Source: a virus
Virus record (IMG/VR): IMGVR_UViG_3300035181_001974
Length of the DNA stretch: 64,000 nucleotides
Reading direction: 5' to 3' (one strand)
Shown piece by piece: positions 11,278 to 38,337 of this stretch; within the stretch, counting starts at the first letter, position 1; every line of letters begins with the position of its first letter. A program made the position numbers and the translations under genes. The notes under the pieces are model-generated. The model was not told the DNA's origin. It ran no database searches and saw only the letters and a list, made by a program, of their open reading frames with translations.

Positions 11278-11280
11278 ACC

Positions 11281-11792: not shown

Positions 11793-12391
11793 TGGCATAT
11801 CACGGGTATCTGCCGATGATGAAGAACTTCATTCATCGGTTGCCTCATCCTCCGTTTGTCATCGAGATCGGTGTCGATCGTGGCGTCTCGTTGTTTCCTT
11901 TGGCAGCCTTCATGGCGCGGGCCAAGGAACAGTTCGTCATGGTCGGTGTGGATATTCTGGTCCAAGAGCAGGTCACCATCATGTCGAGGAACCTAGACTT
12001 GAGCCCAAACCAGCAACTGTTCCTCATTCAGGGCAACAGCCTCGATGTCTTGCCCAAGTTGGTCGCGCAAGGCATGAAGTTCGATCTAGTGCTGTTGGAC
12101 GGCGATCACAACTTCCACACTGTTCAACAGGAGCTGCTGCACCTCGAGGACCTGTGTCATCCACACTCTCTGGTCATCATTGACGATTACGAGGGTCGGT
12201 GGTCTGACAAGGACCTCTGGTATGCTGAGCGGCCTGATTACAAGGACGTCAAGGACGCGACTGCCAAGATCGAGACGGAGAAGCACGGCGTCAAGCCTGC
12301 CGTCGATGAGTTCCTTGCTGCGTATCCCGAGTGGAAGACGGCCCGTCCGCTGGCCGGCGAACCCATCCTGCTCACTCGAGTCAATATTTAG
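11789..12391 (+). CDS. Class I SAM-dependent methyltransferase (Methyltransf_24 / CmcI-TylF-like O-methyltransferase fold)
   Basis: VIEIGVDRGVS (motif I-like) and FDLVLLDGDHNFH (typical DGDH acidic motif). Confidence 0.6.
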   Translation: MMAYHGYLPMMKNFIHRLPHPPFVIEIGVDRGVSLFPLAAFMARAKEQFVMVGVDILVQEQVTIMSRNLDLSPNQQLFLIQGNSLDVLPKLVAQGMKFDLVLLDGDHNFHTVQQELLHLEDLCHPHSLVIIDDYEGRWSDKDLWYAERPDYKDVKDATAKIETEKHGVKPAVDEFLAAYPEWKTARPLAGEPILLTRVNI

Positions 12392-12428: not shown

Positions 12429-13034
12429 ATGAGTGATTTTAAGTTGGACCGCGCTGCGCTAGAAGAGACCCTCGCGATTATGGCGGCTGAAAGAAACGAC
12501 GAAATCGTTGACTATGCGCGTCGGAAGAACGCCGGCGTCGGAACTTCATTGAAGGGAACCGACGATATCGCGGCACATCTGGTCTATGATGACAAGATGC
12601 TGGCTGAGGTCACCAAAGACTGCGCTTTCAACGACCCGCGGATGCACATCGATTCCTCTTTCAAGAGCATAAAGGATTGGCAGGTGAAGTCGGGTGAATC
12701 ATTCCGCGAAATTCGTGAGGATATGCACCTGACACGGGCCGTGCTCGACGAGCTAGCCGACATTGCGCACCTTCAGAAGGTGCAGTCAGAGTTGTGCGGC
12801 AATCTGATGGCTGAGTCCCAAGCTCGTGCAGCTGACAAGTGCATTCTCTTCGTCAATGTCACAAATGAGGATCTCCGTGAAGCAGGCAAGCGCATCGTCA
12901 AGTGCAGCCGTCGGTGGATGGACGGCCATGGTGATGTTGAACCCGTCGACCTGACAGGTGCTTTCGAGGGGACTGAGCCGCTGCCAGAAGATGAACTGAC
13001 GCCCGCGGAAGTGTCTGGCGCTTTGGGTCTGTGA
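12429..13034 (+). CDS. Hypothetical protein (201 aa)
   Basis: ORF. Upstream AATATTTAG motif and RBS GAGGAG. Confidence 0.5.
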   Translation: MSDFKLDRAALEETLAIMAAERNDEIVDYARRKNAGVGTSLKGTDDIAAHLVYDDKMLAEVTKDCAFNDPRMHIDSSFKSIKDWQVKSGESFREIREDMHLTRAVLDELADIAHLQKVQSELCGNLMAESQARAADKCILFVNVTNEDLREAGKRIVKCSRRWMDGHGDVEPVDLTGAFEGTEPLPEDELTPAEVSGALGL

Positions 13035-18309: not shown

Positions 18310-19620
18310 ATGCCGCTACAGAGCCCGGTACAGACAGACATCAACGGCAACCCAATCGGCACCTCGACGAACCCCGTCTCGGCGCAGGTCACGGGTTCGT
18401 TCAAGTCTACGCTGGCCGACTCATTCGGCAGCAACATCCGCGCCACTGTTGCAGATGAGCTCCGCGTTGCAGGCCTATACCTGCTTGCGGACCTCACCAA
18501 CAAGTATGAGCTCGACACTCGCCTCTGGGACGTGCTGACGGCGTCTGCGGGTTCTGTGACTCACGTTCCCGCAGAGTCAGCACTTCGTGTAGCTGTCGTC
18601 GGCACCTCTGGTTCATCTGCAACGTTGAGGACCAACACGTACTACAAGTACCAGGCAGGTTACACTCAGCTGATCGGAATGTCAGTTATCAATTCTGACA
18701 CCGGCCAGGCAGGCCAGCTCAGGGACTGGGGCTACGTAGATGACAACAACGGATTGTTCTTTCGTCTCAATGGTACGTCCTTCAACATCGTCGAGAGGTC
18801 TGACGCGACGGGTGTAGTCGTCGAGACCGTCATCTCGCAGAGTGCCTTCAGCAAGGACCCGGTCAATGGCTTTGGCGCCAGTGGTCTTAACCTCAATGTC
18901 TCGAAGGGCAACCTATACGAGATCGAGGTGCAGTGGTTCGGCGTCGGCACCACACGTTATTTCATTGATGACATCTTGGTCCACGAGTCGAAGCACGCCA
19001 ACACCCTGACGCTGCCATACATGCGTACGGCTAAGTTGCCAGTGCAGGCCAAGGTGACGAATCTTGTGTCGTCGTCTGCTGGTTATCTCGATCTGATCTG
19101 CGCTCGTGTGGCGGCACAGGCTCAGACTGTTGAACCTGCACACTGGGTCTATGGCGTGGGCAACACAAATTCGGTGTTGATCACTCAGGTTGAAGCCCCT
19201 GTCCTCTCGATCAGGCCCAAGTCAACGTACAACGGCATCACCAATCGCAGCATCATTCAACCCAAGTCGTTGTCAATCAGCACACAAGGTTATCCGATTG
19301 CCTTCCGCATCATCGCTAATCCCGTGTTGACGGGCGCTTCATTCAACTCTTCGGGCAATACCAGTTTGGTGGATTACGATGTTGCTGCCACTGGATTCAC
19401 CGGTGGCGAGGTCTTGTACCGCGGCGTCGTCAATTCTGACCTTGGCGTGGTGACAATTGACATGCAGAAGTTCTTCCAAGTGTACGGTCGAATCATGCGC
19501 AACGCAGGTTTCTTGGGCATAGGAGTAAACGCCAACGACATCTTGACAGTTGTGGCCTCGAACTTGGGCGCGGGCAAGACGCAGGTCAAGGCTGACATGA
19601 CCTGGTTGGAGATCAGATGA
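18310..19620 (+). CDS. Putative tail fiber or structural protein (436 aa)
   Basis: Large ORF in the structural run; its N-terminus NGNPIGTSTNPV mirrors the previous gene's NGNPIGVPTNPL. Confidence 0.5.
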   Translation: MPLQSPVQTDINGNPIGTSTNPVSAQVTGSFKSTLADSFGSNIRATVADELRVAGLYLLADLTNKYELDTRLWDVLTASAGSVTHVPAESALRVAVVGTSGSSATLRTNTYYKYQAGYTQLIGMSVINSDTGQAGQLRDWGYVDDNNGLFFRLNGTSFNIVERSDATGVVVETVISQSAFSKDPVNGFGASGLNLNVSKGNLYEIEVQWFGVGTTRYFIDDILVHESKHANTLTLPYMRTAKLPVQAKVTNLVSSSAGYLDLICARVAAQAQTVEPAHWVYGVGNTNSVLITQVEAPVLSIRPKSTYNGITNRSIIQPKSLSISTQGYPIAFRIIANPVLTGASFNSSGNTSLVDYDVAATGFTGGEVLYRGVVNSDLGVVTIDMQKFFQVYGRIMRNAGFLGIGVNANDILTVVASNLGAGKTQVKADMTWLEIR

Positions 19621-21467
19621 GCACCGTGAAGGTTGAACAGGTACTGCTTAACAGTACGATCACCTCCAATGGATCGTACGTCTTCCGCGCCGGACCGGCG
19701 GGTGAGGTCGTCCTTGTCTACAACATCACCGGTGCTGTGACTGGTACTGCGCCCATCCTTCAATTCACGTTGTCTGAAATCGATCCGTCAAATGAGACAA
19801 CCGTCATTGATAAAGTGGTCGCGTCTGCCGAGATCACCGCGACGGGCACGTCGGGGGCTGTGACACTGTTGTTGTCGATCACTCCGACGGTGCTCGTCAG
19901 CTGGACAGTCGCGGGATCTTCGCCTTCGTTCGGTGGCGTTAACCTGGTTGTGTTCTCAAAGGACGCCGGCGTCTCTCAGGCCGATGCTGAAGGCGGTAGC
20001 TATCCAGACCCAAAGAATCTTGACATAAGAGTTCCAGCACCTCTTCTGGTTGACTCGGGTGGATCACTTCGGACACGTGGTCCGATACTAACGGATGAAG
20101 GATCCTTCCGCGACAACTTCATCAGCTCGTTGACGTTGCCACTTAGTGGCACTGTCACGTTCACGTCGGGTTCAACTTACGTCAATGGCATCGGATCACT
20201 GTTCGCGCGTCAACTTGACACGCAGCAGTACATTAAGAGGACTGTTGATCCTGATTCTGCTTGGACATTGGTCAGATCAATCAGCAACGATACTCAACTA
20301 GAACTGGTCTCGCCGTATCCGGGCACCACTGGCAATGGTGGCATTTACTCACAATGGATGTTGATGTCGTCTTCGGGCGGTAGCATTGCCAATGTCAACT
20401 CAAACATGACATTGTCCAACAGTTTGGGCAATGGCGCCATTGTCGCAGCTAATCGATTCGTCGACTACGGGCCGCTGGTCATCAATACTCGTGTAGCATG
20501 TACTTCTCGTGTGCCGAACCAGACACCGTGGTTTGGTCTTGTTGAGATCGTTGACGTGCCTTTGTCGGCATCCGGTCAACGCGCGGTCGTTATTTTTGAT
20601 CCGACGTTGGGAAACACGCAGGTTGTCTTTCGCACCGCTGCCGGTAACAACGTTACGCAGAGCACCACGGTCACCCTACCTGGTTCTGCGTTGACAACAG
20701 CAATAAACCAGTACCTGATCACCACGACAGGCGCTACAGTCACGTTGTCGATCAACGGTGTCACGGTTGCACAGCACACCAATGCGATCCCGGATAACTA
20801 CGTTCCGTTGAATGTCTCATTTCAGGTTGAGAACGCCGCGGTTGTGGGTGCCTCAGCGGTCTTGACGTCTAATGCGATGTGGGTGAATGACCTCAATCGA
20901 ATCGAGGTCGCCAATAGTTTTCCAGGCGAACCTCTATTCGTTAGGTTGACAGGCGTTGCATCTGGCAGCATGGTCCCTCAGCCCATTGCGGGCAGATATG
21001 TGCCGCAGTATGGCCCATCTGGTGTAGTGCTGCCCATCACTCTGTCGAGCTTGGGCTCGTCAGCAGCCCGCCAGAGCGCTGCAGTCGATAACACTGTCAG
21101 CCTCTATGAGGACGTGCTGCTATTCATCAAGTTCACCACCGCGACGACAGCAGTTTCTACCACAGGATACGTCAACGTCTACGGCTATGGCACTGTCGAT
21201 GGTGTCACTTATCCTGAAGGCCTGTCTGGTGTCGACGGCGCGGCGACCTTGTCAACACCTCCTAATCTAGTCTTGTTGGCGCAGCTCACTGCTAACGCTA
21301 ACCTGAAGACCTACACTGCGGGACCCATTTCATTCTGTCGCAACTACGGCGTCGATCGCTTGCCTGCTAAGTGGGGCATTGTCATCGTCAATCAGTCTGG
21401 CGCTGCCTTGAACGCCACGGGTAGCTACGGCGTCACCTACCAGGGCGTGAACGGCCAGCTGACCTGA
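19617..21467 (+). CDS. Putative tail fiber or spike protein (616 aa)
   Basis: Large T/S/G/V-rich ORF with overlapping ATGA junctions. Confidence 0.5.
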   Translation: MSTVKVEQVLLNSTITSNGSYVFRAGPAGEVVLVYNITGAVTGTAPILQFTLSEIDPSNETTVIDKVVASAEITATGTSGAVTLLLSITPTVLVSWTVAGSSPSFGGVNLVVFSKDAGVSQADAEGGSYPDPKNLDIRVPAPLLVDSGGSLRTRGPILTDEGSFRDNFISSLTLPLSGTVTFTSGSTYVNGIGSLFARQLDTQQYIKRTVDPDSAWTLVRSISNDTQLELVSPYPGTTGNGGIYSQWMLMSSSGGSIANVNSNMTLSNSLGNGAIVAANRFVDYGPLVINTRVACTSRVPNQTPWFGLVEIVDVPLSASGQRAVVIFDPTLGNTQVVFRTAAGNNVTQSTTVTLPGSALTTAINQYLITTTGATVTLSINGVTVAQHTNAIPDNYVPLNVSFQVENAAVVGASAVLTSNAMWVNDLNRIEVANSFPGEPLFVRLTGVASGSMVPQPIAGRYVPQYGPSGVVLPITLSSLGSSAARQSAAVDNTVSLYEDVLLFIKFTTATTAVSTTGYVNVYGYGTVDGVTYPEGLSGVDGAATLSTPPNLVLLAQLTANANLKTYTAGPISFCRNYGVDRLPAKWGIVIVNQSGAALNATGSYGVTYQGVNGQLT

Positions 21468-22129
21468 TGTCTGTATTCATTCCGAACACAGCTTCGTCAC
21501 GGCTCAACGCGGCGTGGACTGGCGCTGCAACACAGGATTTGACGATTGCTTGTTGGATCTGGATTCCGCCTGTGGTGACGGCCAACTATCGAGTCATCGT
21601 TGGCATTTCTCCCAATATTGAACTCGAGACGGCGACTGACGGTCTGACGATTGACTTCGGTACCACGTCTGCGGACCACAACGGTCCGCTGCTGGCAGTG
21701 TCAACGTGGTATCACATCGTCATGACGATCAGAAATGCGTCGACGACTAGCCGACAGATCAAAGGATACGTCAACGGCAAGCAGGTCGTTGATGTGGCAG
21801 ACACGACAACGTTCGTAGCATACACAGGCCTCGTCGTCGGCAACCTGCAGTCTCTTCCCACGACACATTACTTCAATGGAAACATCAGAGATCTGAGGAT
21901 CTGGACTCGTGAACTGAATGCCCTCAACGTCCAGGCGGAATACTTGTCACCGGCCCCAGTCAACACCGAAGGATTGATCGTGTGGTCGCCGTTTGATGAC
22001 GACATTTACACTGATCGATCAGGCAATGGTCGCGTCTGGACGCCAACTGGATCACCGGTCCTGCAATTTGGCAGCATAGTGGCGCGCCCGGCTTACGTAG
22101 CTCGTCGATTGCCGATGTTCAACAAATAG
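21467..22129 (+). CDS. LamG-like (concanavalin-type) domain protein, likely a receptor-binding or fiber accessory protein
   Basis: ...GYVNGKQV... and NGNIRDLRIWTRELNALNV match the LamG_3 signature (G.ID(E/D)(V/L)RI(Y/W).RALS..E(I/V)). Confidence 0.5.
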   Translation: MSVFIPNTASSRLNAAWTGAATQDLTIACWIWIPPVVTANYRVIVGISPNIELETATDGLTIDFGTTSADHNGPLLAVSTWYHIVMTIRNASTTSRQIKGYVNGKQVVDVADTTTFVAYTGLVVGNLQSLPTTHYFNGNIRDLRIWTRELNALNVQAEYLSPAPVNTEGLIVWSPFDDDIYTDRSGNGRVWTPTGSPVLQFGSIVARPAYVARRLPMFNK

Positions 22130-22140
22130 GTAAGATCACC

Positions 22141-23460
22141 ATGGCACAGATCACAGTCCTCAACGTCAACAGTCAGAACGATGGTTCATTCTCTGTCGCC
22201 GGCGTCTTTTGGTTGACAGCGCCCACGAGCAACATCGTCCCGCTGCCCAAGTTTGAGAGCGCAGTCCACGGGATCACGGGCGATGAGGATCTGCTTCTGC
22301 GCCGCGGGCTCGTCATCGAGAAGCCTTTCACCTCAGGTCTGTTCCCGGCCGGAACCTCGACGGAGGACGTCCAAAGCACGCTCCAATCGATGTTTTCCGA
22401 AGCACAGCTCGAGGTCGAAGCTGTACCTACGTCTCCATTCGTCGGCATGCAGTACGACGGGTCGAGTTGGATCACGTCTTCTGTCAGTCCCGCGTGGATC
22501 GCTGCCCAGGTGCCTCCCAAGACTGCCTCTGGATCACCTTTGATGACCATTGCGCAGATGCAGACCGACGGCACTCCCATGGTCGCCTTGGCGCCGACCG
22601 TCGGATCTGAACTTGTCGTTGTGTCACACAATCTGTGCGACCCCTGCACCTGGTTCGGCGATTCCGTTCGAGTCAATGACGAGACGTTGGTCGATTCCGG
22701 CGATGGATTGACGTTCAATTCGGCTCACCCGTTCTGGATTGACATGACATCCGGGCGGATGCACAACGAGGACAAGTGGATTGCTAAGCAACAGGCTGCA
22801 AATCCTGGCGATCCACACGGCTACGGTGTGGTCGTTAAGGTCAGTGGTTCGCTCAAGACAATGCGTGAACCTCTCGAGACGTCAGGAGGAGATTACGAGG
22901 TGTTGTATGCCTCGGGCAGCGTCAGGTTCTTTTCGCCTCCCGTAAGCCCACCAGTCGTCAGTTACTCCTATCAGAATGGATCAACGTTCTACGTTCAACC
23001 AGATCCTGGCAATTTGCTGCGAATCATCAAGGCCGAGGTCGACGTGTCTACCGACAGCGTCATGACTGACACCGTCGAGTACAACATCTATGCATTGGTT
23101 GATGTGGTGGCGCCTCAGTTGGTCGCTGGTGGATTCGTTCCTTCTGGCACGAAGATCATGATTGATCAGATAGTCTACAAGCGCATGGGTCAGATCGTTG
23201 CTGAAGCCCAAGGCGCTTATCCACCGGTCACTGCTTTGGGCGCCAATTCCGCAGACCTCACGTTGTCTCTTGAGGAATTTCGCCAGAAGTCGAGGGGCAC
23301 TCAGGCGCCAGTTCAAGGACTTCCATTCAATTATGAGACGACTCGCGATTTGCTCTCGTCAGCCGGCGCCGAGATCAGGATCAAACTACGTCATGATCGA
23401 CCATTCGTTGGTAGCACGGTCACCATTGCCCTTTACAGCGTCACTAAGTCTGATGCCTGA
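22141..23460 (+). CDS. Putative structural protein (439 aa)
   Basis: ORF in the structural run. Confidence 0.45.
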   Translation: MAQITVLNVNSQNDGSFSVAGVFWLTAPTSNIVPLPKFESAVHGITGDEDLLLRRGLVIEKPFTSGLFPAGTSTEDVQSTLQSMFSEAQLEVEAVPTSPFVGMQYDGSSWITSSVSPAWIAAQVPPKTASGSPLMTIAQMQTDGTPMVALAPTVGSELVVVSHNLCDPCTWFGDSVRVNDETLVDSGDGLTFNSAHPFWIDMTSGRMHNEDKWIAKQQAANPGDPHGYGVVVKVSGSLKTMREPLETSGGDYEVLYASGSVRFFSPPVSPPVVSYSYQNGSTFYVQPDPGNLLRIIKAEVDVSTDSVMTDTVEYNIYALVDVVAPQLVAGGFVPSGTKIMIDQIVYKRMGQIVAEAQGAYPPVTALGANSADLTLSLEEFRQKSRGTQAPVQGLPFNYETTRDLLSSAGAEIRIKLRHDRPFVGSTVTIALYSVTKSDA

Positions 23461-23472
23461 AGATACTTAGCC

Positions 23473-24360
23473 ATGAAGGAGTTGGGCACCATGCGAGCAC
23501 TTGTTCTGAGTGGTGGAGGCGTCAAGGGTGCCTTTCAGGTGGGCGTCCTGAAGAAGTGGATGGGCGAACAAGGCATCGATTATGACATCATCTGTGGTGT
23601 TTCAGTCGGCGCCTTGAACACTGCTGGCATCGGCATGACGCCCAAGGGTTCGCCGAAGGAGGCGGTTGCCTGGTTGGAAAACTTCTGGCGGACGCAGGTC
23701 AATCAGAAGAACATCTACAAGCGCTGGTTCCCGTTTGGACGCTTGCACTCACTGTGGGAGAAGTCAGTTTATGATTCGTCTCCTCTGATCAAGCTTGTCA
23801 GCGATAATCTACATCTCGAGAAGGTTGCCTCCAACGGTCGCATGCTGGCGGTCGGAGCTGTCTCGTTGGACACTGGAGAACACAGGTTTACCCGCGAGAG
23901 TGATCCCAATTTTACGAAGTGGGTTCTAGCCTCGGCATCTTTTCCAGTTTTCTTGCAGCCCATTGAGATCGAAGGCCAGTTGTGGTCAGACGGCGGCATC
24001 AAGAACGTGACTCCTTTGGGCGAGGCAATTAGGCTCGGAGCAACTGAGATTGACGTCATCATGTGTACCAACATCGAGGAGATGACTCGATGGGATTCAA
24101 CATCGAAGCGCGCGGTTCCTGACGCAGTGACTCGCGCCGTCGACCTCATGTCTGACCAGATCATTAAGAATGACATTGAGATGTGTGGCCTAAAGAACGA
24201 TCTCTCGGTCATCGATCCACAGTACCGCAAGGTGACGGTGAGGGTCGTGATGCCTGACGCGCCGTTGGTCCAAGATTCACTGACGTTTTCACCCGAAATT
24301 GTGTCAGGCTTGATCGACAAGGGCTATGCCTTTGCTGATCGAGCGGTGATGTACCATTGA
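23473..24360 (+). CDS. Patatin-like phospholipase
   Basis: LSGGGVKGAFQVG (GGGxK/RG oxyanion motif), GVSVGALN (GxSxG nucleophile) and WSDGGIKN (DGG catalytic Asp). Confidence 0.75.
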   Translation: MKELGTMRALVLSGGGVKGAFQVGVLKKWMGEQGIDYDIICGVSVGALNTAGIGMTPKGSPKEAVAWLENFWRTQVNQKNIYKRWFPFGRLHSLWEKSVYDSSPLIKLVSDNLHLEKVASNGRMLAVGAVSLDTGEHRFTRESDPNFTKWVLASASFPVFLQPIEIEGQLWSDGGIKNVTPLGEAIRLGATEIDVIMCTNIEEMTRWDSTSKRAVPDAVTRAVDLMSDQIIKNDIEMCGLKNDLSVIDPQYRKVTVRVVMPDAPLVQDSLTFSPEIVSGLIDKGYAFADRAVMYH

Positions 24361-24366
24361 GGTGAC

Positions 24367-24849
24367 ATGCCGCTGCAGCAGCTACGAAATGCTAACTTCG
24401 GACGATTGAAGGCCGACGCCACGGGTTCTTCGGGCGTGGGTTACACCCTGTTGGACATCTCTGGTTCTGCGGTCATGCCACGGACAACGACAGGCGTCTA
24501 CCAGACGGCGCCCGGGATTTACGCTGCCTACATCACCTTTCCCGACAACTTTCGTGGTCAACTTCTGTGGGATACCGGCACCGCGTTCTTGACAGCATCG
24601 TACGCCACTGAGCAGTACAACGTTGAAGAAAACAACCCGAAGGTGGACGACACCCTGCGAGCCGTGCTGCCGCTGGCCGCGCAGATTCAGCAGTTGTACG
24701 ACATTCAATACGGTCGCTGGCGTATCACCAACAATCAGATGATCTTCTACAAGGAAGATAACGCTACCGAGGTTGCGAGGTTTGACCTCTACGATGATAC
24801 TGGCAATCCGTCGATGGACGCAGTGTTCGATCGTGTTCGGGTGCCATGA
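24367..24849 (+). CDS. Hypothetical protein (160 aa)
   Basis: ORF. Confidence 0.4.
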   Translation: MPLQQLRNANFGRLKADATGSSGVGYTLLDISGSAVMPRTTTGVYQTAPGIYAAYITFPDNFRGQLLWDTGTAFLTASYATEQYNVEENNPKVDDTLRAVLPLAAQIQQLYDIQYGRWRITNNQMIFYKEDNATEVARFDLYDDTGNPSMDAVFDRVRVP

Positions 24850-25973: not shown

Positions 25974-27158
25974 ATGCCGAGCTTTGTGCAAACCCTGCGC
26001 CCGACGCCGTTCGGGTTCTTCGATTCCGACCTGCAGTTTCAGCAGGAAGCCGACTCGATGGTCACCTTCGTCAAGCGTAAGCTGGGCGACGATGTCCTGT
26101 CTGTCGAGCTGACATCCAAAGAGATCTGGGCGTGTTTCGAGGAAGCGTGCTGTGAGTACGCTCGAAAGATTCACGAGATGAAGATCCAATCTGAACTGGC
26201 CAACGTTTTGGGCATGCCCACGGGATCCGCCAGCGATCTGACGAACAAGTACCCATTTCAGACGTTGGAGTTCCTGATGCGTCAGGCCTCGCCATACTCG
26301 ACGTACGCGGGCATGGGAGGCAACTATGACGCGACTCTGGGTTACTTCGACCTGCAGCCCGGCCGTCAGGACTACAACATCTACACAGAGCTGAAGGACG
26401 CAGTCTCGGGTTCAGTCATTTACCAGAACATGACGACCAAGAGCCCGATCCGCGTGATCGATGTCTTTCACTTCGAGCCATATGCTGCTCAGCAGTTCTT
26501 GATGAACGCTAGCAACATTACCAACTTCTTGGCCACTGAGTTCAACTACGAGAGCTACGTTAACTCGACGATCTTCTACGTGCTGCCAGTGTTCGAGGAC
26601 GTGTTGAGGAGGGGCATGTTGAATATGGCCTCCCGCGTTCGTCGATCAAATTACAGTTATGAGATCTTGGGCAGCAACGTCAGGATTTATCCCACGCCGA
26701 CGACGGACCTTGACACTGGCCGCATGTACCTGAAAGTTCAGGCTGGCATGCTCGATCCGTTGAACCCGTCTGCTCTTCAAGGTCAAGATCAGTCGATCTA
26801 TGGTGTTTCGGGTCCGCAGAACGTGCCTCTTGGTAACATTCCATTTAGCAGCATCACGCAGCCGGGTCGCCAGTGGATCAGGCAATACACTCTGGCCTTG
26901 GCCCGTGAGATCTTGGGCCTCAACAGGTCAAAGTTTCAGGGGATTCCGATCCCAAACGCAGACCTGCAGTTGAACGGCGAGTCGCTGATCACTCAGGCGC
27001 GGGAAGACCGCGACAAGCTTCAGACTCAGCTCAAGGAGTTCTTGGACAACCTGACGAACGCTAAGCTGATGGAACAGCAGGCTAACGTTGCAGAGAACAT
27101 GCAGAAGATGTTGAAGTACATCCCAATGCCGCTCGGCAAGAGCATCGTGATCGGGTGA
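25974..27158 (+). CDS. Putative structural protein (394 aa)
   Basis: ORF with CATACTTAC motif upstream. Confidence 0.45.
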   Translation: MPSFVQTLRPTPFGFFDSDLQFQQEADSMVTFVKRKLGDDVLSVELTSKEIWACFEEACCEYARKIHEMKIQSELANVLGMPTGSASDLTNKYPFQTLEFLMRQASPYSTYAGMGGNYDATLGYFDLQPGRQDYNIYTELKDAVSGSVIYQNMTTKSPIRVIDVFHFEPYAAQQFLMNASNITNFLATEFNYESYVNSTIFYVLPVFEDVLRRGMLNMASRVRRSNYSYEILGSNVRIYPTPTTDLDTGRMYLKVQAGMLDPLNPSALQGQDQSIYGVSGPQNVPLGNIPFSSITQPGRQWIRQYTLALAREILGLNRSKFQGIPIPNADLQLNGESLITQAREDRDKLQTQLKEFLDNLTNAKLMEQQANVAENMQKMLKYIPMPLGKSIVIG

Positions 27159-27161
27159 ACC

Positions 27162-27833
27162 ATGAGTAGGTTGTACATCACGCCTCGAGAGCTGAACTTC
27201 ATCTCCGACATCACCAAGGAGTTCATCAAGGATGTTGTCGGTCAGAAGATCTTCTACTACCCGGTCTCTGAGCTCAAGACTAAGACGCATGCGGTCTACA
27301 ATGAGGCCATCAAGAAGGTGGTCGACAATCCAATCGCCATCGATGCGTTGGTGGACAACAACTTTCAGACAGACACCAAGATCGATCAGTTTGGCGTCGA
27401 TCCGCAGTACAAGATCGAGGTCTACGTCCAGCACCGTGATCTGGTTGAAAAGGGGATCAACGTCTCCCTGGGTGATTACTTTTCATTCTCGGACATCTTC
27501 TATGAGATTTCAGACCGCGTCTTCATGCGTAACATCTATGGCCTGCCCGAACACAAGGACGGCGTCAAGTTGACGGGAACTAAGGCCCGTGAGAGCTTGT
27601 TTAAGGCGTTGACCTTGGGACCGACGGACATTTCGAGGCCTGAGCCTGATGCAGTGCAGACGACCTTCGTGCAACAGCGCGGGCAGTCTGAAAACAAAGA
27701 GGGACCGACGGCTGATCGACGTGCATTGCAGGACAACGGAGTCCTAGAAAAGCCGCTGTCAGGCCCCCGTGAGGTGTCACCCAAAGGCGATCCTGACAAG
27801 GTGGGTTCTGCATTCTATGGTGAGGATGACTGA
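27162..27833 (+). CDS. Putative structural protein (223 aa)
   Basis: ORF. Confidence 0.45.
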   Translation: MSRLYITPRELNFISDITKEFIKDVVGQKIFYYPVSELKTKTHAVYNEAIKKVVDNPIAIDALVDNNFQTDTKIDQFGVDPQYKIEVYVQHRDLVEKGINVSLGDYFSFSDIFYEISDRVFMRNIYGLPEHKDGVKLTGTKARESLFKALTLGPTDISRPEPDAVQTTFVQQRGQSENKEGPTADRRALQDNGVLEKPLSGPREVSPKGDPDKVGSAFYGEDD

Positions 27834-29128
27834 TGCCCAATCGCTTCAATGCTAAGCCCCGCGAGAACTACGGAATCGCACCTTTGCCCACGGGTTATCC
27901 GCAGGGCGGGCCCGTCTCTGACCTCGTCATCCCTGCGGTGGGGCTGGAGGACGTCGACGTGGCGTTCTTCAACTTGTTCGACAAGGAGATTCCACTCGTG
28001 GCTGGCGGTGAAGATGGGACGGATATGAGAAAAGTCCCCGTCATCTTTGCTGGCGGCGAAAAGTGGGCCATGTTGAAGCGCAATCGACCGATCCGCGATA
28101 AGACCAATTCGCTTGTCTTGCCTTTGATCACCGTGGGTCGTCCCTCGATCGGTCAGAGTAGCGCTGATGACATTACGGGTCGTGGCATCAACCAGCGCAC
28201 CGGTGAGATCACGATTCGTAGAAAACTCGATAAATCGGACCGTGGCTACCAAAACTTGATCAACAGGATTTTTCTGAAGCACCAGCAGGGGCTCGCAGTT
28301 GGACCCAACGATGCCGACCTAGGCCAGTTGACGACCCTAAGGGAGATAGGCGAGCTGGCAGACGATGCGACAGTGAATGATGGCGGGTTTTTGGCGGCTG
28401 ATCGAACGAACAATGTCTATGAAACGCTTGTCATTCCGAGCCCACAGTTTGTGACCCTCAACTACGAGGTCATCGTCTGGACCCAGTACACTCATCATAT
28501 GAACCAGATCATTGAGACGTTGCTATCGTCCTTCCTACCACAGACCCAGGGTTGGCGACTCGATACGCCCAAGGGTTACTGGTTCGTGGCGACAGTCGCG
28601 GATGACCTTTACAATGCTGAGACGAACTTCGAAGACATGTCGCAAGGCGAGCGTCTCATCAAGTACAAGTTCAACGTCAAGGTGCCGGCGTACATCCTCG
28701 CAAGTTCAGCACCTGGCGTGCCGATTCCTGTCAAGCGCTATATCTCGGCGCCTGACATCAAGTTCGAGACCGGCATTACAGTGTCTGAAGAGTCTGGCGT
28801 GGCTGGAGTTGATGATCCGTTCTTGGGTGCTGATGATCCGACACTGCCACTGGCAGACGGGGAAGTCAGGAACCGCGACCAACGCCGCGATGGACGTGGT
28901 CGGTTGTACAGACAATCATCTGAGATCGACCCGAACGATCCCGCCTTGTCAGGACTTCCGCGCTCGCGCCCGACGAATCGTTACAAGAAGGTCACGGTCA
29001 TTGATCAGAACGGCCGTCCCGCGACGCGGTACGTGAGAATTTTGTCTACGACACCGTCAGTCGGTGAGACTGTCTATTCGCCCTCGAGTGATCTCGGCGG
29101 CCTTGCGATCGTGGTCATTGACGACTGA
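27833..29128 (+). CDS. Putative structural protein (431 aa) immediately upstream of the sheath genes
   Basis: ORF. Confidence 0.45.
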   Translation: MPNRFNAKPRENYGIAPLPTGYPQGGPVSDLVIPAVGLEDVDVAFFNLFDKEIPLVAGGEDGTDMRKVPVIFAGGEKWAMLKRNRPIRDKTNSLVLPLITVGRPSIGQSSADDITGRGINQRTGEITIRRKLDKSDRGYQNLINRIFLKHQQGLAVGPNDADLGQLTTLREIGELADDATVNDGGFLAADRTNNVYETLVIPSPQFVTLNYEVIVWTQYTHHMNQIIETLLSSFLPQTQGWRLDTPKGYWFVATVADDLYNAETNFEDMSQGERLIKYKFNVKVPAYILASSAPGVPIPVKRYISAPDIKFETGITVSEESGVAGVDDPFLGADDPTLPLADGEVRNRDQRRDGRGRLYRQSSEIDPNDPALSGLPRSRPTNRYKKVTVIDQNGRPATRYVRILSTTPSVGETVYSPSSDLGGLAIVVIDD

Positions 29129-29198: not shown

Positions 29199-32100
29199 AT
29201 GCCCGAGCAGACTTTCAGGTCGCCCAACTTTTTCGAGCGCGAGATTGACATTTCGACCCCGACACCCGTCGGTCCGGTCGGAACGCCTGCCGGCGTTGTC
29301 GGCACCGCAAACAGGGGACCTGCGTTCGTCCCTGTCACGGTCGGGAACTTCGATCAGTTCATTGCCACATTCGGCAACCTTGATCCAAAGCTCTTTGGTC
29401 CGTATGCGGTCAACGAGTTTCTAAAGCATCGCAGCGCATTGACCTATCTCAGGGTCCTGGGCGCGGGTGCCAACGCAACGCAGTCAGACATCGCCAACAC
29501 GTTGCAGACGGGTCGAGTTCTCTCGGCTGGCATGCACCTGGATGGCACTCCGGCCGTTGACGACAAGCTGGGCCGCCACAACGGCGCAATCCAGTTCTTG
29601 GCAGCTCAGCACACCTTGCAGAGCGATGAGGCCTATGGAATCCCGATGTTCACGGACAACGATTCCTACTCGGGATCGACCGTCAACCTGGTCCGCGGCA
29701 TGGTGATGCTGCCGACCACCGCGCGCCTCATGGTCCTGGATGGCAACGGCACCGCCGTCGGCGCCTTCAACGGCAGCAACGTTGACTCGGCCTTGATGGT
29801 TGGTGGCAAGTTCAAACTCGCGATTTCTTCGACCTTGGGCAATGCCTTCTGGAACACGGATGGCAACCCGGGCGTCAGGATCTTCACGGCCTCACTTAAT
29901 CCGACGAGCCCAGACTACTTCGCCAAGATCTTGAACACGGATCCTGACAAGTTCGTCCAGGAGCAGCACCTGGTCTATGCAGACTTCCCGGTCGATGATG
30001 AGCTCGCCACTGCGACTGTGGTCGGCGTCCTCTCGGGCTCCAACAACACCAGCAGCACCTCGGGTGACAAGACCCTTCCGATGAGGAAGGTCTTTGGAGC
30101 CTTCGACACGCGTTACCGTGCACCGTCCACGACGTACTTCATCTCGCAGCCATTCGGCACGACAGAGTACGACCTCTTCAAGTTCGAGGCATTGGACGAC
30201 GGCGAATACGCCAACAACCTCTTCAAGATCGCCATCACGGACCTCAAGGCTTCGCTGGACGATTCCAACCCGTACGGCACCTTCACCGTCCAGATCCGCG
30301 ATTGGAACGACACGGACACCAATCCGTTGGTCCTGGAGATGTTCCCAGGCTGTTCACTGGATCCGATGTCAGATCACTACATCGGCAAGTTGATCGGCGA
30401 TCGCAAGGTCAGCTATAACTTTGACACGACGTTGGACTCTGAACGCCGCGTGGTCGCCACAGGCAAGTACCCGAACGTCTCGCAGTATGTCCGCGTTGTC
30501 ATCGCGGACCAGGTTGAGCGTGCTTTGGTGCCTCAGAAGTCGCTACCCTTCGGCTTCCGCGGCGCGGTGGTCCCGAAGACCAACGACCTGTTGACCGACG
30601 CTTCACCGTCTTCCGCCACTGCACGGTTGGCTGGCGTCCTGGGCGTGGGTTCCGCGTCTTCCCTGTCGGGTTCGATCATCCCGCCCGTTCCTTTCCGCAC
30701 CAAGGTGACGAAGGGCGATGCTCCGGCCGGCGCAGCCTGGCTTGGCCAGCCCGGTTCGACTGAGCTGACACTCAGCCAGTTCTACTGGGGCGTCAAGTTT
30801 GAGCGCAACACTCTGCCGCTCAATCCCAACCTCATCAACGACAAGAACGGTCTGCTCGAGTCGTACACCAAGTTCATGGGCATTCCTAAGTTGGACGCCT
30901 TGGTCTCTGGCTCGGGCGCAGACCAACTGAACAACAACAAGTTCACGTTGGCGAAGGTTGCACTGTCCAATGGTGCCCTGACTGACATCACCTCGTCGGT
31001 TCAGGATCACATGAAGGAAGCAGCTTACATCCGTAACGGCAAGCTCGACCTGACCAACTACACCATCAAGGATCCGGTCCTCGGACCGCGTGTCACATTG
31101 GCCACCTTGTTGGCTCAAGGCAGCGCCTCGGACTTCAATCGCTTTTCGCAGTTCACCAAGTTCATCACCTTCATGGCTGGTGGCTGGGACGGCGTCAATG
31201 TTCTCGACCGCGATGCGAGGAGGATGAATGACAAGGCCTCGTCCTTCGACGCTGGCGGCGGTGCTGCGGTCGGTTACTCGGCGCCTGGTCTGGGTTACAA
31301 CCCGACCGGGACGGGTCAGCAGAATGCGACGGTCGCTTCCTACAAGACGGCAATCGACATCATGACTGATCCTCTGGTCGTCAACACGAACATCCTGGCG
31401 TTGCCGGGCATCCGCGAGAGCTTTATCACAGAGTATGCCCTCAACAAGGTCCGCGACTACGGTCTGGCCTACTACGTGATGGACATCCCATCCTACGATG
31501 ATTCCTCGAACCGTCTGTACGATGACTCGGCAGCACGGCCCTCGATCGATCAGACGGCAAACCAGTTCGATGCTCGAGCGTTGGACAATAACTACGCTGG
31601 CACGTACTACCCGGACGTCTTCGTTGACGATGCGACCAACCGCCGCCGCGTCAAGGTTCCGGCCTCGGTCGCCGCCATGGGTGCCTTGGCCTTCAACGAT
31701 CGCGTTGCCTACCCATGGTTCGCGCCTGCCGGCTTCAACCGCGCAGCGCTGGACTTTGTCACCAACGTCAGCGTGCGTCTCAATGTGCCCGATCGTGACA
31801 GGCTCTACGATTCACGAATCAACCCGATCGCAACCTTCCCGAGGCTAGGCTTCGTCATCTATGGCCAGAAGACGTTGCAGATCAACAAGTCGGCACTCGA
31901 CAGGGTCAACGTCCGTCGCCTCCTCCTGGAGGTCAAGCGCATCATCATGGGTATCGCTCAGAAGCTGGTCTTTGAGCAGAACACCCCCGAGGTGCGTAAC
32001 AAGTTCGTGGCCGACGCAATCCTGCAACTAGGTCTAATTCAGTCCCAGGCTGGCGTGGAAGCGTTCCAAGTTATCATGAACGAGACGAACAACACGCAGG

Positions 32101-32213
32101 AAGACATCGACCTCAACCGCCTCCGCGGTCGGATCGTCGTGGTGCCGACGAGGGTCATCGAGTATATCGCGATCGACTTCATCATCACTAACAGCGGCGT
32201 CCAGTTCGTGTGA
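29199..32213 (+). CDS. Tail sheath protein, paralog 1 (1004 aa)
   Basis: N-terminus ...FRSPNFFEREIDISTP...GTANRGPAFVPV...FG matches the T4 gp18 N-terminal pattern (SPGIELKET...GKFQWGPAF...FG). C-terminus GQKTLQ...DRVNVRRLL...NETNNTQEDIDLNRLRG...V.P.R matches the sheath C-terminal domain. Confidence 0.85.
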   Translation: MPEQTFRSPNFFEREIDISTPTPVGPVGTPAGVVGTANRGPAFVPVTVGNFDQFIATFGNLDPKLFGPYAVNEFLKHRSALTYLRVLGAGANATQSDIANTLQTGRVLSAGMHLDGTPAVDDKLGRHNGAIQFLAAQHTLQSDEAYGIPMFTDNDSYSGSTVNLVRGMVMLPTTARLMVLDGNGTAVGAFNGSNVDSALMVGGKFKLAISSTLGNAFWNTDGNPGVRIFTASLNPTSPDYFAKILNTDPDKFVQEQHLVYADFPVDDELATATVVGVLSGSNNTSSTSGDKTLPMRKVFGAFDTRYRAPSTTYFISQPFGTTEYDLFKFEALDDGEYANNLFKIAITDLKASLDDSNPYGTFTVQIRDWNDTDTNPLVLEMFPGCSLDPMSDHYIGKLIGDRKVSYNFDTTLDSERRVVATGKYPNVSQYVRVVIADQVERALVPQKSLPFGFRGAVVPKTNDLLTDASPSSATARLAGVLGVGSASSLSGSIIPPVPFRTKVTKGDAPAGAAWLGQPGSTELTLSQFYWGVKFERNTLPLNPNLINDKNGLLESYTKFMGIPKLDALVSGSGADQLNNNKFTLAKVALSNGALTDITSSVQDHMKEAAYIRNGKLDLTNYTIKDPVLGPRVTLATLLAQGSASDFNRFSQFTKFITFMAGGWDGVNVLDRDARRMNDKASSFDAGGGAAVGYSAPGLGYNPTGTGQQNATVASYKTAIDIMTDPLVVNTNILALPGIRESFITEYALNKVRDYGLAYYVMDIPSYDDSSNRLYDDSAARPSIDQTANQFDARALDNNYAGTYYPDVFVDDATNRRRVKVPASVAAMGALAFNDRVAYPWFAPAGFNRAALDFVTNVSVRLNVPDRDRLYDSRINPIATFPRLGFVIYGQKTLQINKSALDRVNVRRLLLEVKRIIMGIAQKLVFEQNTPEVRNKFVADAILQLGLIQSQAGVEAFQVIMNETNNTQEDIDLNRLRGRIVVVPTRVIEYIAIDFIITNSGVQFV

Positions 32214-32336: not shown

Positions 32337-35300
32337 ATGGCACAGCTAAAGTTCGGAAGCGCTGGCGTGACGGCAAGGGAAATCGATCTTTCGGGTCCAG
32401 TGACCCAGGAACCAGTCGGTGTTCCCGCAGGCGTTATTGGCACGGCAGTGAAAGGACCTGCATTCATCCCGGTCACCGTCGGCACGATCGATGACTTCTA
32501 CGCCAAGTTCGGTAAGACCGACGGCAAGAAGTTCGGCCCGTTGGCTGTCACTGAGTGGATGCGCAAGGCGCAGGCAGTGACCTATCTCAGGGTCCTGGGC
32601 GCAGGCGATGGCCGCACGCGGAATGATGACGGCTCGGTCAACGGCGCTGGTTTCACTGTCGGACAGCAGTTGCCGCGCGCCTCAGATGGCACGCTGGACG
32701 GTAACCCGTACGCCAATTCGGGCGCTTTGGGTTCTCCTCTGGGTCGAGCCTACTTCCTCGGCGCGTTCATGTCAGAGTCTGCTGGTTCGACTATCTTCTC
32801 GTCGGCCGGCATCCAAGGATTGGGTTCAACGACTCCCGGTGCAGACACTGCCGCGGTCATCGTTCGAGGCATGCTGATGGCCCCCTCGGGCGTTATCCTC
32901 CGCGTGTCTTCTTCGACAGCCGGTAACTCTTCAGCCCCTCCGTCGAACCTCGTTGCTACCGATGGCACCGCTCACGGTGGCTTGGTCGGCACCGTCGTCC
33001 TGATGGACGCAGGTGTCGCAAAGTCGGACTTCGTGCTGCTGTTGAACGGTCACCAGGGAACGGACCCGCTGTACCCGAACGTTATCACGGCTTCGTTCGA
33101 CATGACGAGCCCGAACTACTTTGCCAACGTCCTGAACACGGATCCCTACAAGATTCAGCAGGCTGGTCACTTCCTGTATGCATCCTGGGACGTTCACCCT
33201 GCTACTGCAGTGGTCACCGGCTCGGGCCTCGTTTCCGCGCTGTCAGGTGCAGGTGCGGCCACGGCGCCCAAACCGGGTGCTGAAACTGCTGTCTTCCTGA
33301 CGACAGCTTCTCTTGCACGCAACGTTGGTTCGAGCACGGTCCCGAACTACGAGGCCTTCACTGATCGTTTCAGCCACGCTAAGTCCCCGTGGATCATCTC
33401 GCAGAAGTTTGGTGGCTCGCCTTCCAATCTCTTCCGGTTGCATGCTCTGGATGCCGGCGCCAATGTCTCGACGCTATACAAGATCTCGATCGAGAACATC
33501 ACCCCGTCGACGGACCCAGCCAACAAGTTTGGTTCCTTCGACCTGGTTCTCCGCGACTGGAACGACCGCGATGCTGCTCAGCAGCCGCTGGAACAGTTCC
33601 GCGGCGTCAACTTGGATCCGAGCTCGGATCGCTACATCGCCAAGATTGTCGGCGATGCTCACGTGTTCTTCGACTTCGACCGCGCCGAGCCGGCCCAGAA
33701 GATCGTCTTCGACGGCAACTACCCGGCACAGTCGAACCTCGTCCGCGTCGAGGTCGATCTTGGGGTTGAGAACGGCACCGTCGATCCGACGGCACTGCCC
33801 ATGGGCTTCCGCGGCGTCGAGCACCTCGTCACCTCTGGCTCTGCTCCTCTGACAAGCGTCACTGACGGCAGCTTGACTGCGGCCACCTACCTGAAGCGCG
33901 CAATCGAGCCGCCGCTGCCGATGCGTTCCAACATCACCGCAGGTTCTGGCGCCAAGGTCCAAGTCAACCCATTGCTCTACTGGGGCGTCCAGTTCGAGCA
34001 CGTGGCCAGCCTGGCGACTCCGAATGCATCGACCTTGAAGAACGCTTCGTTGAAGTCGTTTGCCAAGTACTTCCCGGACTTCTCGGAGATCAACCAGAAC
34101 GTGTCTGTCGGTGACAACACCGGCGCGGTCGACACCGGCGCGTGGGGCATCATTGATGCCGACAGGTTCTGCAACAACCTGTTCACCCTCGAGAACCTGC
34201 AGGTCGTCACGGCATCCACGACGTTGGCTGACCCGACGCAGTGGGTCTCAGCACAGTACGTGCGTGGTGGTGCGATCACGGCTAACGATGCCAACAAGAC
34301 GCGGGCCTTCAAGACAGACGATCTCGTCCAGGCCAACCGTCGGTTCGCCAAGTTCAGCTTCCTATTGCAAGGCGGCTTCGACGGAATCCTACTGTTCGAC
34401 AAGGACTCAGCAGAGATCAACAACGCAGCCATCACGGCTGACATGAACGCCACCAACCGTGGCAGGGACCAGGGCTCAAACGTCCGGACCTACGCCAAGG
34501 CGCTGGAAATCATGAAGAACGTGGTGAACACAGACATCCAGTTGCTGGCGATCCCTGGCATCCGTCACCCGATCGTCACCAACGCAGCGGCTGACGCGGT
34601 CAAGGAACGGTTTGATGCTCTCTACATCATGGACATCGAGCAGTTCGACAACACTGACACTGAGGTCTTCACTGATTCGCAGCTGCCGTCTGTCACCTAC
34701 ACCGCCAACTCGTTCGCCAACCGCGCGATGGACAACAACTTCGCCGCTGCCTACTTCCCAGACGTGGTGATGCCGGATCCTAACACCAAGACCAACGTCG
34801 TCGCGCCACCTTCTGTCGCGGTCCTCGGCGCCCTGGCCTTGAATGATGCGGTCGGTCACCCCTGGTTTGCTCCAGCCGGTGTCACCCGCGGTGCGTTGCC
34901 GACTGTCCTCGAGGCCCGTGTTCAGCTGTCGAAGCCTAACATGGACGCACTCTACGATGTCGCCATCAACCCATTGGTCGCCTTCCCGGGAACTGCCGTC
35001 GGTGGCACCAACCCGAAGGGCGGCGTGGTGGTTTGGGGTCAGAAGACCCTGCAGGCCGCGGCCTCGGCTCTCGATCGCGTCAACGTTCGCAGGTTGCTGA
35101 TCGAGATCCGCCGCCAGGTCCGCGACATCTCGCAGACGATCATTTTCGAGCCCAACAGGGCTGCCACCCTGGCCCGCTTCACGGCCGCGGTTACCCCGCG
35201 TCTGCAGCGCATCCAGGCTCAGGCGGGCCTCGAGCGGTTCAAGGTTATTATCGACTCCAGCACCACGACGCAGCAGGACATCGAGAACAACACGATCCGC

Positions 35301-35384
35301 GGTAAGATCTATGTCCAGCCGACCAAGTCGATCGAGTTCGTCTCCTTGGACTTCGTGGTCACCAACAACATCACCCAGCAGTGA
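32337..35384 (+). CDS. Tail sheath protein, paralog 2 (1015 aa)
   Basis: Same N-terminal (ITAREIDLSGP...GTAVKGPAFIPV...FG) and C-terminal (GQKTLQ...DRVNVRRLL...TTQQDIENNTIRG...V.P) sheath signatures as paralog 1. Both genes are preceded by GATACTTAC. Confidence 0.85.
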   Translation: MAQLKFGSAGVTAREIDLSGPVTQEPVGVPAGVIGTAVKGPAFIPVTVGTIDDFYAKFGKTDGKKFGPLAVTEWMRKAQAVTYLRVLGAGDGRTRNDDGSVNGAGFTVGQQLPRASDGTLDGNPYANSGALGSPLGRAYFLGAFMSESAGSTIFSSAGIQGLGSTTPGADTAAVIVRGMLMAPSGVILRVSSSTAGNSSAPPSNLVATDGTAHGGLVGTVVLMDAGVAKSDFVLLLNGHQGTDPLYPNVITASFDMTSPNYFANVLNTDPYKIQQAGHFLYASWDVHPATAVVTGSGLVSALSGAGAATAPKPGAETAVFLTTASLARNVGSSTVPNYEAFTDRFSHAKSPWIISQKFGGSPSNLFRLHALDAGANVSTLYKISIENITPSTDPANKFGSFDLVLRDWNDRDAAQQPLEQFRGVNLDPSSDRYIAKIVGDAHVFFDFDRAEPAQKIVFDGNYPAQSNLVRVEVDLGVENGTVDPTALPMGFRGVEHLVTSGSAPLTSVTDGSLTAATYLKRAIEPPLPMRSNITAGSGAKVQVNPLLYWGVQFEHVASLATPNASTLKNASLKSFAKYFPDFSEINQNVSVGDNTGAVDTGAWGIIDADRFCNNLFTLENLQVVTASTTLADPTQWVSAQYVRGGAITANDANKTRAFKTDDLVQANRRFAKFSFLLQGGFDGILLFDKDSAEINNAAITADMNATNRGRDQGSNVRTYAKALEIMKNVVNTDIQLLAIPGIRHPIVTNAAADAVKERFDALYIMDIEQFDNTDTEVFTDSQLPSVTYTANSFANRAMDNNFAAAYFPDVVMPDPNTKTNVVAPPSVAVLGALALNDAVGHPWFAPAGVTRGALPTVLEARVQLSKPNMDALYDVAINPLVAFPGTAVGGTNPKGGVVVWGQKTLQAAASALDRVNVRRLLIEIRRQVRDISQTIIFEPNRAATLARFTAAVTPRLQRIQAQAGLERFKVIIDSSTTTQQDIENNTIRGKIYVQPTKSIEFVSLDFVVTNNITQQ

Positions 35385-38261: not shown

Positions 38262-38337
38262 ACGGCCGACACGTGTGCCAGGTCCCTATTTACGCAGTGG
38301 TGACAGGAGGGTAAGATCACCACACAAGGGACCACAA

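Follow-up and report, generated by a model that had tools for sequence, protein, structure and literature searches.

A patatin-like lipid acyl hydrolase gene beside the tail-fibre cluster of an uncultured jumbo myovirus

In a 64,000-nucleotide stretch of viral DNA (IMG/VR record IMGVR_UViG_3300035181_001974; hereafter the window) we have analysed a gene on the plus strand, at 23491-24360, which lies between tail-fibre and neck genes and is predicted to encode a stand-alone enzyme of the patatin fold. The assignment, with a catalytic dyad of Ser38 and Asp167 and an oxyanion loop rich in glycine, is solid as judged from the sequence. We also find that related proteins recur in many uncultured viral contigs, and that the gene is accessory, being present or absent among close relatives at its junction with the neck gene gp13. 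We propose, as a tentative best guess, that the product is a soluble accessory enzyme of late infection that would help to breach the envelope and would not be a component of the virion; the ranking of functional models is weakly determined.

The patatin gene and its clade

The open reading frame (ORF) at 23473-24360, in which the initial annotation had recognised a patatin-like phospholipase, was confirmed on the plus strand, with a match to Pfam Patatin (PF01734; E=6.2e-31, 108.5 bits against a gathering threshold of 27.7 bits) over residues 10-186. Homologues uniformly open with MRAL or MKAL and are about 289 residues long, the window protein read from the second ATG at 23491 opens MRALVLSGGG, the gene was called from that ATG in two independent Logan assemblies, and an AAGGAG Shine-Dalgarno sequence lies at 23476-23481, 9 nt upstream of it. 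We therefore take 23491-24360 to be the true coding sequence of a patatin-like lipid acyl hydrolase of 289 residues. The six in-frame codons from the first ATG (MKELGT, 23473-23490, plus strand), which are missing in every aligned homologue and contain the AAGGAG, are probably an untranslated leader bearing the ribosome-binding site.

All three catalytic signatures claimed by the initial annotation were located on the plus strand, and their conservation was followed in an alignment of the window protein with 23 homologues at 51-86% identity (residues numbered from the Met at 23491). In the GGGVKG oxyanion-hole loop (23512-23529), read directly from the sequence, G8 and G9 are invariant, the third glycine is G or A, and K12 and G13 are conserved. 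The GVSVG nucleophile elbow (23596-23610; catalytic Ser codon 23602-23604) has invariant G36, S38 and G40, and the DGG motif (23989-23997; catalytic Asp codon 23989-23991) has invariant D167, G168 and G169. The patatin proposal had been staked beforehand on conservation of the catalytic Ser and Asp, and both S38 and D167 are invariant in 24 of 24 sequences. An AlphaFold2 model built from the same alignment (mean predicted local distance difference test, pLDDT, 79.6; predicted template-modelling score, pTM, 0.82) retrieved CapV, PlpD, potato patatin (1oxw/4pkb, Pat17) and CapE in Foldseek, with probability 1.00 and template-modelling scores of 0.6-0.69; E-values for CapV, PlpD and patatin range from 7e-12 to 7e-10. 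A sequence-profile search of the PDB matched PlpD (5fqu, E=5e-15) and CapV (E=1.7e-8) as the only solved relatives, and none of the PHROG families matches the protein. The predicted activity would most plausibly be directed at acyl esters of membrane glycerolipids.

The protein has many relatives. A set of 5.8 billion proteins yielded more than 2,000 matches at E≤1e-5, the best 120 all at least 51% identical and about 289 residues long, and a HMMER scan of 1.84 billion representatives gave 886 clusters at E≤1e-30. The best 150 representatives (50%-identity clusters) score at least 230 bits, nearly all as full-length matches, and span 175-365 residues, most of them 270-300. In IMG/VR, 148 contigs encode a patatin relative; 80 contigs that we examined reach 529 kb, with locus GC contents of 29-68%, and across loci of that range patatin length is held at 284-296 residues. 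Among 185,579 species, represented by one genome each, only four contigs of metagenome-assembled genomes encode a protein at least 38% identical. These four, which are probably binned phage, carry the taxon assignments Thioploca, Terriglobia, Ignavibacteria and Gemmatimonadaceae. Since bacterial homologues are otherwise at most 33% identical, we regard the clade as distinct from bacterial patatins. In filtered pairs at 71-94% protein identity, the ratio of nonsynonymous to synonymous substitution rates (dN/dS) is 0.03-0.10 where computable, with one pair at 0.23, and synonymous sites are at or near saturation (dS at least 0.9), which indicates strong purifying selection on the patatin.

A DNA-level search of GenBank phages with the patatin gene gave no match, and a protein-level search gave only 10 records, at 33% identity or less. 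In one of these, labelled 'Acinetobacter phage MD-2021a' (CAKLQH020000002.1 / CAKLQF020000003.1, locus L247) the patatin is flanked by fadJ, a thiolase gene, secA and an MFS transporter gene, and this region appears to be bacterial chromosome and not phage. Another locus, L033, carries tandem patatin paralogues (10001-10828 and 10865-11722), the second 43% identical to the window protein.

Gene order and distribution

The initial annotation placed the gene between fibre and structural ORFs on the same strand, and this arrangement was borne out. Upstream, fibre-like genes occupy 19617-23460, all on the plus strand: a 616-residue fibre-like protein (19617-21467), whose N-terminal region matches a PHROG tail fiber protein (E=7e-6); a protein with a Concanavalin-A/Laminin-G-like (LamG) lectin domain (21467-22129; Pfam Laminin_G_3, E=1e-14; PHROG virion structural protein); and g439 (22141-23460), a 439-residue jelly-roll protein of the fibre cluster whose family (U1) is the commonest upstream neighbour of the patatin. 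Downstream lie g160 (24367-24849, plus strand), the first gene of a neck-side block g160-g117-g242-gp13, the gp13-like neck protein (25974-27158, plus strand; PHROG head-tail adaptor, E=1e-11, with Pfam Phage_T4_gp13 matched by orthologues), a gp15-like protein (27833-29128) and two tandem sheath paralogues of about 1000 residues (29199-32213 and 32337-35384), each with its own ATACTTA upstream. The tandem sheath pair is also found in the related loci L001 and L003.

We compared 82 patatin-anchored loci and 79 gp13-anchored loci. The patatin closes the fibre cluster at its 3′ end in the window and in most of these patatin loci. It nearly always has the same orientation as a series of mid-to-large ORFs upstream of it, and often overlaps the preceding gene (-1 or -4 nt). 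Two loci, L001 (on a 357-kb contig) and L003 (324 kb), reproduce the window order of fibre cluster, patatin, g160, an ORF of about 120 residues, an ORF of about 220 residues, gp13, gp14, gp15 and two sheath genes. In 17 of the 82 loci the gp13-sheath block lies no more than 10 kb 3′ of the patatin; otherwise the fibre cluster and patatin lie elsewhere in the genome.

Viewed from gp13, the patatin is an accessory gene. It is present in 3 of the 51 gp13-anchored loci that have at least 3.5 kb of upstream sequence, and most such loci keep the fibre cluster elsewhere. Two relatives, L086 (gp13 86% identical) and L093 (80%), retain the g160-g117-g242-gp13 block with no patatin or g439 before it, whereas the more distant L005 (gp13 76%) and L001 (71%) do carry the patatin. 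In the fibre clusters of L093 and L095 the LamG-g439-patatin segment is missing. Loss or relocation is the simplest reading of this pattern.

A hidden Markov model of the g439 family found a match directly 5′ of the patatin, or separated from it by a single GIY-YIG homing endonuclease gene, in 34 of the 82 patatin loci and in none of the 79 gp13-anchored loci; the remaining 48 patatin loci have no g439-family gene nearby. The N-terminus of g439 is variable and sometimes tail-fibre-like, and its C-terminal jelly-roll is conserved. Upstream families U2-U7 were considered as relatives of g439 and proved unrelated; they include a GIY-YIG homing endonuclease and an oxidoreductase, and three of their proteins resemble, by eye, a glycosidase, a beta-helix spike and a lipoprotein, none of these three having a Pfam match. 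The gene directly 5′ of the patatin at L001:8750-9937 (also in L006 and L007) encodes a protein that starts MKKLWSLLATVVLVASCAG, a lipoprotein signal peptide with a lipobox; a phage lipoprotein beside fibre genes is reminiscent of the receptor-blocking lipoproteins Llp and Cor. Homing endonucleases of the GIY-YIG/NUMOD3 and HNH types often stand beside the patatin: a GIY-YIG gene lies directly upstream in 11 loci, and 8 of 150 downstream ORFs (three genes 3′ of the patatin at about 50 non-redundant loci) are HNH genes. The loci with a homing endonuclease upstream are L043, L049-L056, L068 and L083, and in L043, L051, L052 and L056 a GIY-YIG gene separates the g439-family gene from the patatin.

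The motif that the initial annotation had noticed before the patatin gene is present at 23462-23470 on the plus strand (GATACTTAG, core ATACTTA at 23463-23469), within the 30-nt spacer that follows the g439 stop codon (23458-23460), and its core is enriched across the window. ATAYTTA occurs 11 times against 1.7 expected, a count that 0 of 100 shuffles reached, at 3660, 12384, 13865, 23463, 25210, 25952, 29158, 32309, 36507 and 53865 on the plus strand and at 37288 on the minus strand; 10 of the 11 copies are on the coding strand. Eight lie 22-45 nt 5′ of the starts of late or structural genes, at 3688, 12429, 13904, 23491, 25974, 29199, 32337 and 36536; the last five of these starts belong to the patatin, gp13, the two sheath paralogues and the gp19 tail tube. 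We consider ATAYTTA a candidate late promoter of this phage lineage, on the model of the T4 late promoter TATAAATA. Before the patatin it is kept only in the closest relatives, as ATACTTAC in L005 and as CTACTTA in L003 and L016; elsewhere the patatin is instead coupled to the upstream gene. The motif also precedes the sheath genes of L001 and the g542 homologues of L001 and L003. A scan for sigma-70 promoters and terminators over 13-30 kb of the window gave no enrichment relative to shuffles.

The ORF downstream of the patatin, g160, had been put forward as a cognate immunity or partner gene, and its distribution speaks against that role. It adjoins the patatin in only 12 of the 82 loci. L086 and L093 keep it without a patatin, L009 and L010 have it upstream of the patatin and not downstream, and it is missing from L005, where gp13 directly follows the patatin. 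The four commonest families of downstream neighbours (D1-D4) are mutually unrelated by hhalign (probability below 1%): a beta protein of about 110 residues is found at 24 loci, g160 and a protein with IPT/TIG-like repeats at 11 each, and a Zn-finger-like protein at 6. Searches of Pfam, PHROGs, NCBIfam, PADLOC and the PDB found no match for g160. Patatin and g160 are in the same frame in the window, with 6 nt between the stop of the one and the ATG of the other (24358-24369), and a single 441-residue protein on one 5.7-kb metagenome contig (P0032) is an in-frame patatin-g160 fusion, which could be a real read-through variant or an artefact of assembly or sequencing. We prefer to see g160 as the gene that opens the neck-side block, and not as an immunity or partner gene.

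These observations bear on the proposal that the patatin is a toxin or defence effector comparable to the patatins of anti-phage or toxin systems: a CapV-like effector of a cyclic-oligonucleotide-based anti-phage signalling system (CBASS), a superinfection-exclusion toxin or a cyclic-nucleotide decoy, with 24367-24849 as its immunity or activator partner. The best structural matches do include CapV and CapE, there are weak matches to PADLOC phospholipase effector models and to the NCBIfam CBASS_lipase model (NF041079), and the single P0032 fusion also counts in favour of this reading. The CBASS_lipase score of 46 bits, however, is far below the cutoff of 200 and covers residues 2-175 only, the catalytic half. 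No CD-NTase cyclase was found in the window neighbourhood by Pfam and PADLOC, or among the 150 downstream ORFs of relatives, nor was any sensor or other defence gene found in the neighbourhood, and g160 is neither co-distributed with the patatin nor conserved downstream of it. Neither its profile score nor its operon thus places the protein in CBASS, and we consider an effector with a partner very improbable, a reading largely refuted by distribution. A CBASS decoy or sponge was also rejected, in view of the invariant catalytic residues and of a resemblance to CapV that is limited to the catalytic half.

PHROG and Pfam matches of the window ORFs identify the source as an uncultured myovirus distantly related to T4. 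It is a jumbo phage of at least 309 kb, since a 309,433-bp JGI contig encodes a protein identical (100%) to g439. Among GenBank phages the best match to its major capsid protein (MCP) is 48% identical (the uncultured LR756508.1) and the best match to gp13 is 30% identical, and no cultured relative was found. The window also encodes a prohead protease (Peptidase_S77, by Pfam/PHROG match), a 633-residue major head protein (5742-7643; T4-type MCP PHROG), a gp19 tail tube (36536-37027), a baseplate hub (38275-39201), a UvsX-like recombinase (55189-56433) and a DnaB-like helicase (58847-60310). The strong MCP match of the head protein is confined to its C-terminal 270 or so residues, so that it carries a large N-terminal extension.

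Possible functions

We tentatively favour a function in late release because the protein is a bare domain, the gene is dispensable, it follows the fibre genes as lysis genes do in T4 and T7, and there are precedents in LysB and in phage WO. Lysis genes commonly come directly after tail-fibre genes, as with T4 t after gene 38 and T7 17.5 after gene 17. The gene would be transcribed late, either from the ATAYTTA promoter-like element or through coupling to the upstream fibre gene, and the product would be a soluble, cytoplasmic enzyme able to cleave acyl esters of host membrane glycerolipids. Held latent, it might weaken the host envelope at the end of infection and thereby aid release, either by attacking the inner membrane from within or by reaching the outer membrane once holin lesions had let it out. 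Such an enzyme would resemble LysB and the phage WO patatin in their proposed roles, and would put CapV chemistry on the phage's own schedule. Latency is likely because other bacterial patatins need activators: CapV responds to cyclic GMP-AMP (cGAMP), ExoU to ubiquitin and VipD to Rab5.

Several observations weigh against a function in release. A Pfam search of the 150 downstream ORFs found no lysozyme, amidase, peptidase or holin, the matches being mainly HNH and GIY-YIG homing endonucleases, the second patatin of L033 and assorted sugar-metabolism enzymes. There is likewise no lysozyme, amidase, holin family or recognisable endolysin among the 39 remaining ORFs of the window, no small transmembrane ORF near the patatin by a hydrophobicity scan of the window, and no adjacent spanin-like gene. 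A cytoplasmic phospholipase made throughout late infection would need to be kept latent, and no candidate activator or inhibitor was identified. Finally, the frequent translational coupling of g439 and patatin (34 of 82 loci), the joint absence of LamG, g439 and patatin from two fibre clusters and the P0032 fusion fit a virion role at least as well. In a separate check for SGNH lipases, the window ORF at 12429-13034 was considered as a counterpart of a weak GDSL-lipase ORF in L003 and found not to be one.

The main rival, close to what the initial annotation suggested but in our view rather doubtful, is that the enzyme is an entry lipase borne by the virion, for example bound non-covalently to g439 or at the periphery of the neck or baseplate, where it would cut outer- or inner-membrane lipids at adsorption or DNA delivery. 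The chief support is the pairing with g439, often with overlapping stop and start codons; the position within a co-oriented run of virion genes with structural genes on both sides, the tail-fibre-like N-terminus of some g439 proteins joined to a conserved jelly-roll, and a promoter-like motif common to the sheath genes agree with it as well. Position among virion genes is nonetheless weak evidence of location in the virion, because plainly non-structural enzymes are encoded in the same run: a peptide deformylase in the head module (1773-2276; EGCxS/HExxH motifs, Pfam E=1.7e-48), a Methyltransf_24/CmcI-like methyltransferase before the fibre cluster (11789-12391) and a NUDIX hydrolase (39482-40195) between the baseplate hub and a 1680-residue ORF. 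The architecture of the protein also counts against targeting to the virion. In the model it is the catalytic domain alone, with the first beta-strand from residue 2 and the end at the domain's last helix and strand, and it has no anchoring or adaptor domain. No N-terminal capsid-targeting extension of the T4 IPI-III or Alt type is conserved, as judged by sequence only, and there is no signal peptide or transmembrane segment (maximum 19-residue Kyte-Doolittle mean 1.3). Among the 150 best representatives there are no fusions to fibre, baseplate or other structural or attachment domains, the longer proteins carrying low-complexity read-through tails only. The gene is also dispensable in close relatives, and 48 of the 82 loci lack a g439-family gene nearby. 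These features leave virion association of the patatin somewhat weakened, and we know of no patatin that has been shown in a tailed-phage virion. The 1680-residue ORF (40204-45246), which matches no PHROG and has seven hydrophobic segments, in a cluster at residues 833-998, probably encodes a tape-measure protein or an ejected, membrane-inserting protein and is a more conventional candidate for penetration of the inner membrane.

A bolder version of virion carriage, which we regard as unlikely, is that patatin and g439 form an accessory 'lipase fibre' cassette, in which the patatin would be held non-covalently by the C-terminal jelly-roll of g439 and would hydrolyse lipids locally at adsorption or genome delivery, the cassette being gained and lost by many jumbo myoviruses of differing hosts. 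If this were true, tailed phages would gain their first entry enzyme that acts by lipid hydrolysis, a functional counterpart of the phospholipase A2 of parvovirus VP1u.

A further model, which we also hold to be improbable, makes the patatin an auxiliary metabolic or host-remodelling enzyme. It might supply fatty acids and lysolipids for energy or lipid turnover during a long jumbo-phage infection, or might act after lysis by clearing receptor-bearing debris and vesicles, sparing progeny from dead-end adsorption. Studies of a megaphage and of viromes have classed phage patatin-like phospholipases (PLPs) as auxiliary metabolic genes (AMGs; PMC9723777, PMC9469726). The stand-alone, soluble and accessory nature of the enzyme agrees with this model, and at some loci the neighbours include a GFO/IDH/MocA oxidoreductase, a GDP-mannose dehydratase/epimerase and an aminotransferase. 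A role in clearing debris or receptors would be in keeping with the linkage to receptor-binding genes. The viral loci show no linked genes for fatty-acid utilisation, however, and steady placement in a late structural operon is atypical of early or middle genes of metabolic takeover. Debris clearing has no direct lipase precedent.

Tailed phages are thought to cross envelopes by means of peptidoglycan hydrolases, holins, spanins and polysaccharide depolymerases, and to our knowledge phage lipid-hydrolysing enzymes are essentially limited to mycobacteriophage LysB and to proposals such as that for phage WO. More than 100 uncultured viral contigs, many of them jumbo and spanning 29-68% GC, encode a constrained, bare patatin domain that usually ends the host-recognition cluster, and this recurrence points to a widespread and unstudied phospholipid hydrolysis in phage infection. 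Chemistry in common with CapV, a CBASS effector of the host, raises the issue of how the phage secures the latency of its enzyme. Even an ordinary accessory role in lysis or metabolism, should that be the outcome, would leave a useful annotation for a large family of proteins now called 'hypothetical' or 'NTE family'. The enzyme, a small and soluble protein that can readily be expressed, makes the question directly testable.

Comparison with known systems

Fold and catalytic apparatus are common to the window protein and the CBASS effectors CapV and CapE, with CapV giving the top Foldseek matches in the PDB (8zr9 and 9jeh, E about 1e-11). Like CapV, the phage protein is predicted to be a cytoplasmic patatin without a signal peptide, and both could attack the inner membrane from within. 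In contrast to CapV, which has about 340-360 residues, the window protein has 289, and it is encoded by a phage and not in a host defence island. PlpD of Pseudomonas aeruginosa (type Vd) has the same compact, bacterial-type patatin domain, with 22-26% identity in structural alignment; in PlpD this domain is joined to POTRA and beta-barrel domains that serve secretion, whereas the phage protein consists of the catalytic domain only and has no export signal. The protein also scores far from the RssA-type patatins (NF007623), at 33.6 bits against a cutoff of 272.

As a phage-encoded, accessory and soluble lipid esterase that breaches an outer lipid layer late, at lysis, mycobacteriophage LysB offers a functional parallel. 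LysB has a cutinase-like alpha/beta-hydrolase fold and the window protein a patatin fold, and LysB lies beside LysA and a holin, a cassette with no equivalent here. A parallel in gene context is phage WO of Wolbachia, in which the gp45 patatin abuts the tail module and is under purifying selection, and for which a role in entry or exit, or in a lytic cassette, has been proposed (PMC3173496, PMC9203015). The likeness drawn here is the placing of a patatin beside a tail or fibre module. Phage WO is small and temperate, and its patatin is accompanied by a holin-like protein with a single transmembrane segment and by an ankyrin protein; no holin-like or ankyrin neighbour of this type was found in the window or among the 150 downstream ORFs of relatives.

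Patatins of other large phages have been described from metagenomes. The PLP of the marine megaphage Mar_Mega_1 / LR745206 was called the first in a phage and treated as an AMG (PMC9723777), and PLPs were flagged as AMGs in Arctic lake viromes (PMC9469726). These also belong to very large uncultured phages, a likeness drawn from their description, and the two reports present the PLP as a metabolic or virulence gene without analysis of its context (PMC9723777, PMC9469726). The patatins of two megaphage records, LR756508.1 and LR756504.1, are about 25-27% identical to the window protein, and within 9 kb of the LR756508.1 patatin no homologue of the fibre or neck genes of the window was found. 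Rhodothermus phage RM378, a cultured myovirus of the far-T4-like type, encodes a stand-alone patatin, Rm378p022, annotated as a 'hypothetical protein' and 27% identical over 92% of the query. Its gene lies among replication genes (DNA polymerase, helicase and ribonucleotide reductase) and not in a fibre or neck block, and it falls outside the clade defined at 38% identity or more. The top structural match among viral models, a 321-residue entry, is possibly this protein.

Patatin-like genes have also been reported as morons of Burkholderia prophages (PMC2920897), and two reviews of jumbo phages leave phage-encoded phospholipases unmentioned (PMC7824862, PMC13282480). None of the earlier reports of phage PLPs, in phage WO, Burkholderia, Mar_Mega_1 or the Arctic viromes, describes this clade or its association with the fibre cluster, or gives an experimental test. 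The enzyme family and the occurrence of PLPs in phages were thus already known; what is new is how large and how conserved this jumbo-phage clade is, and the pattern of its gene positions.

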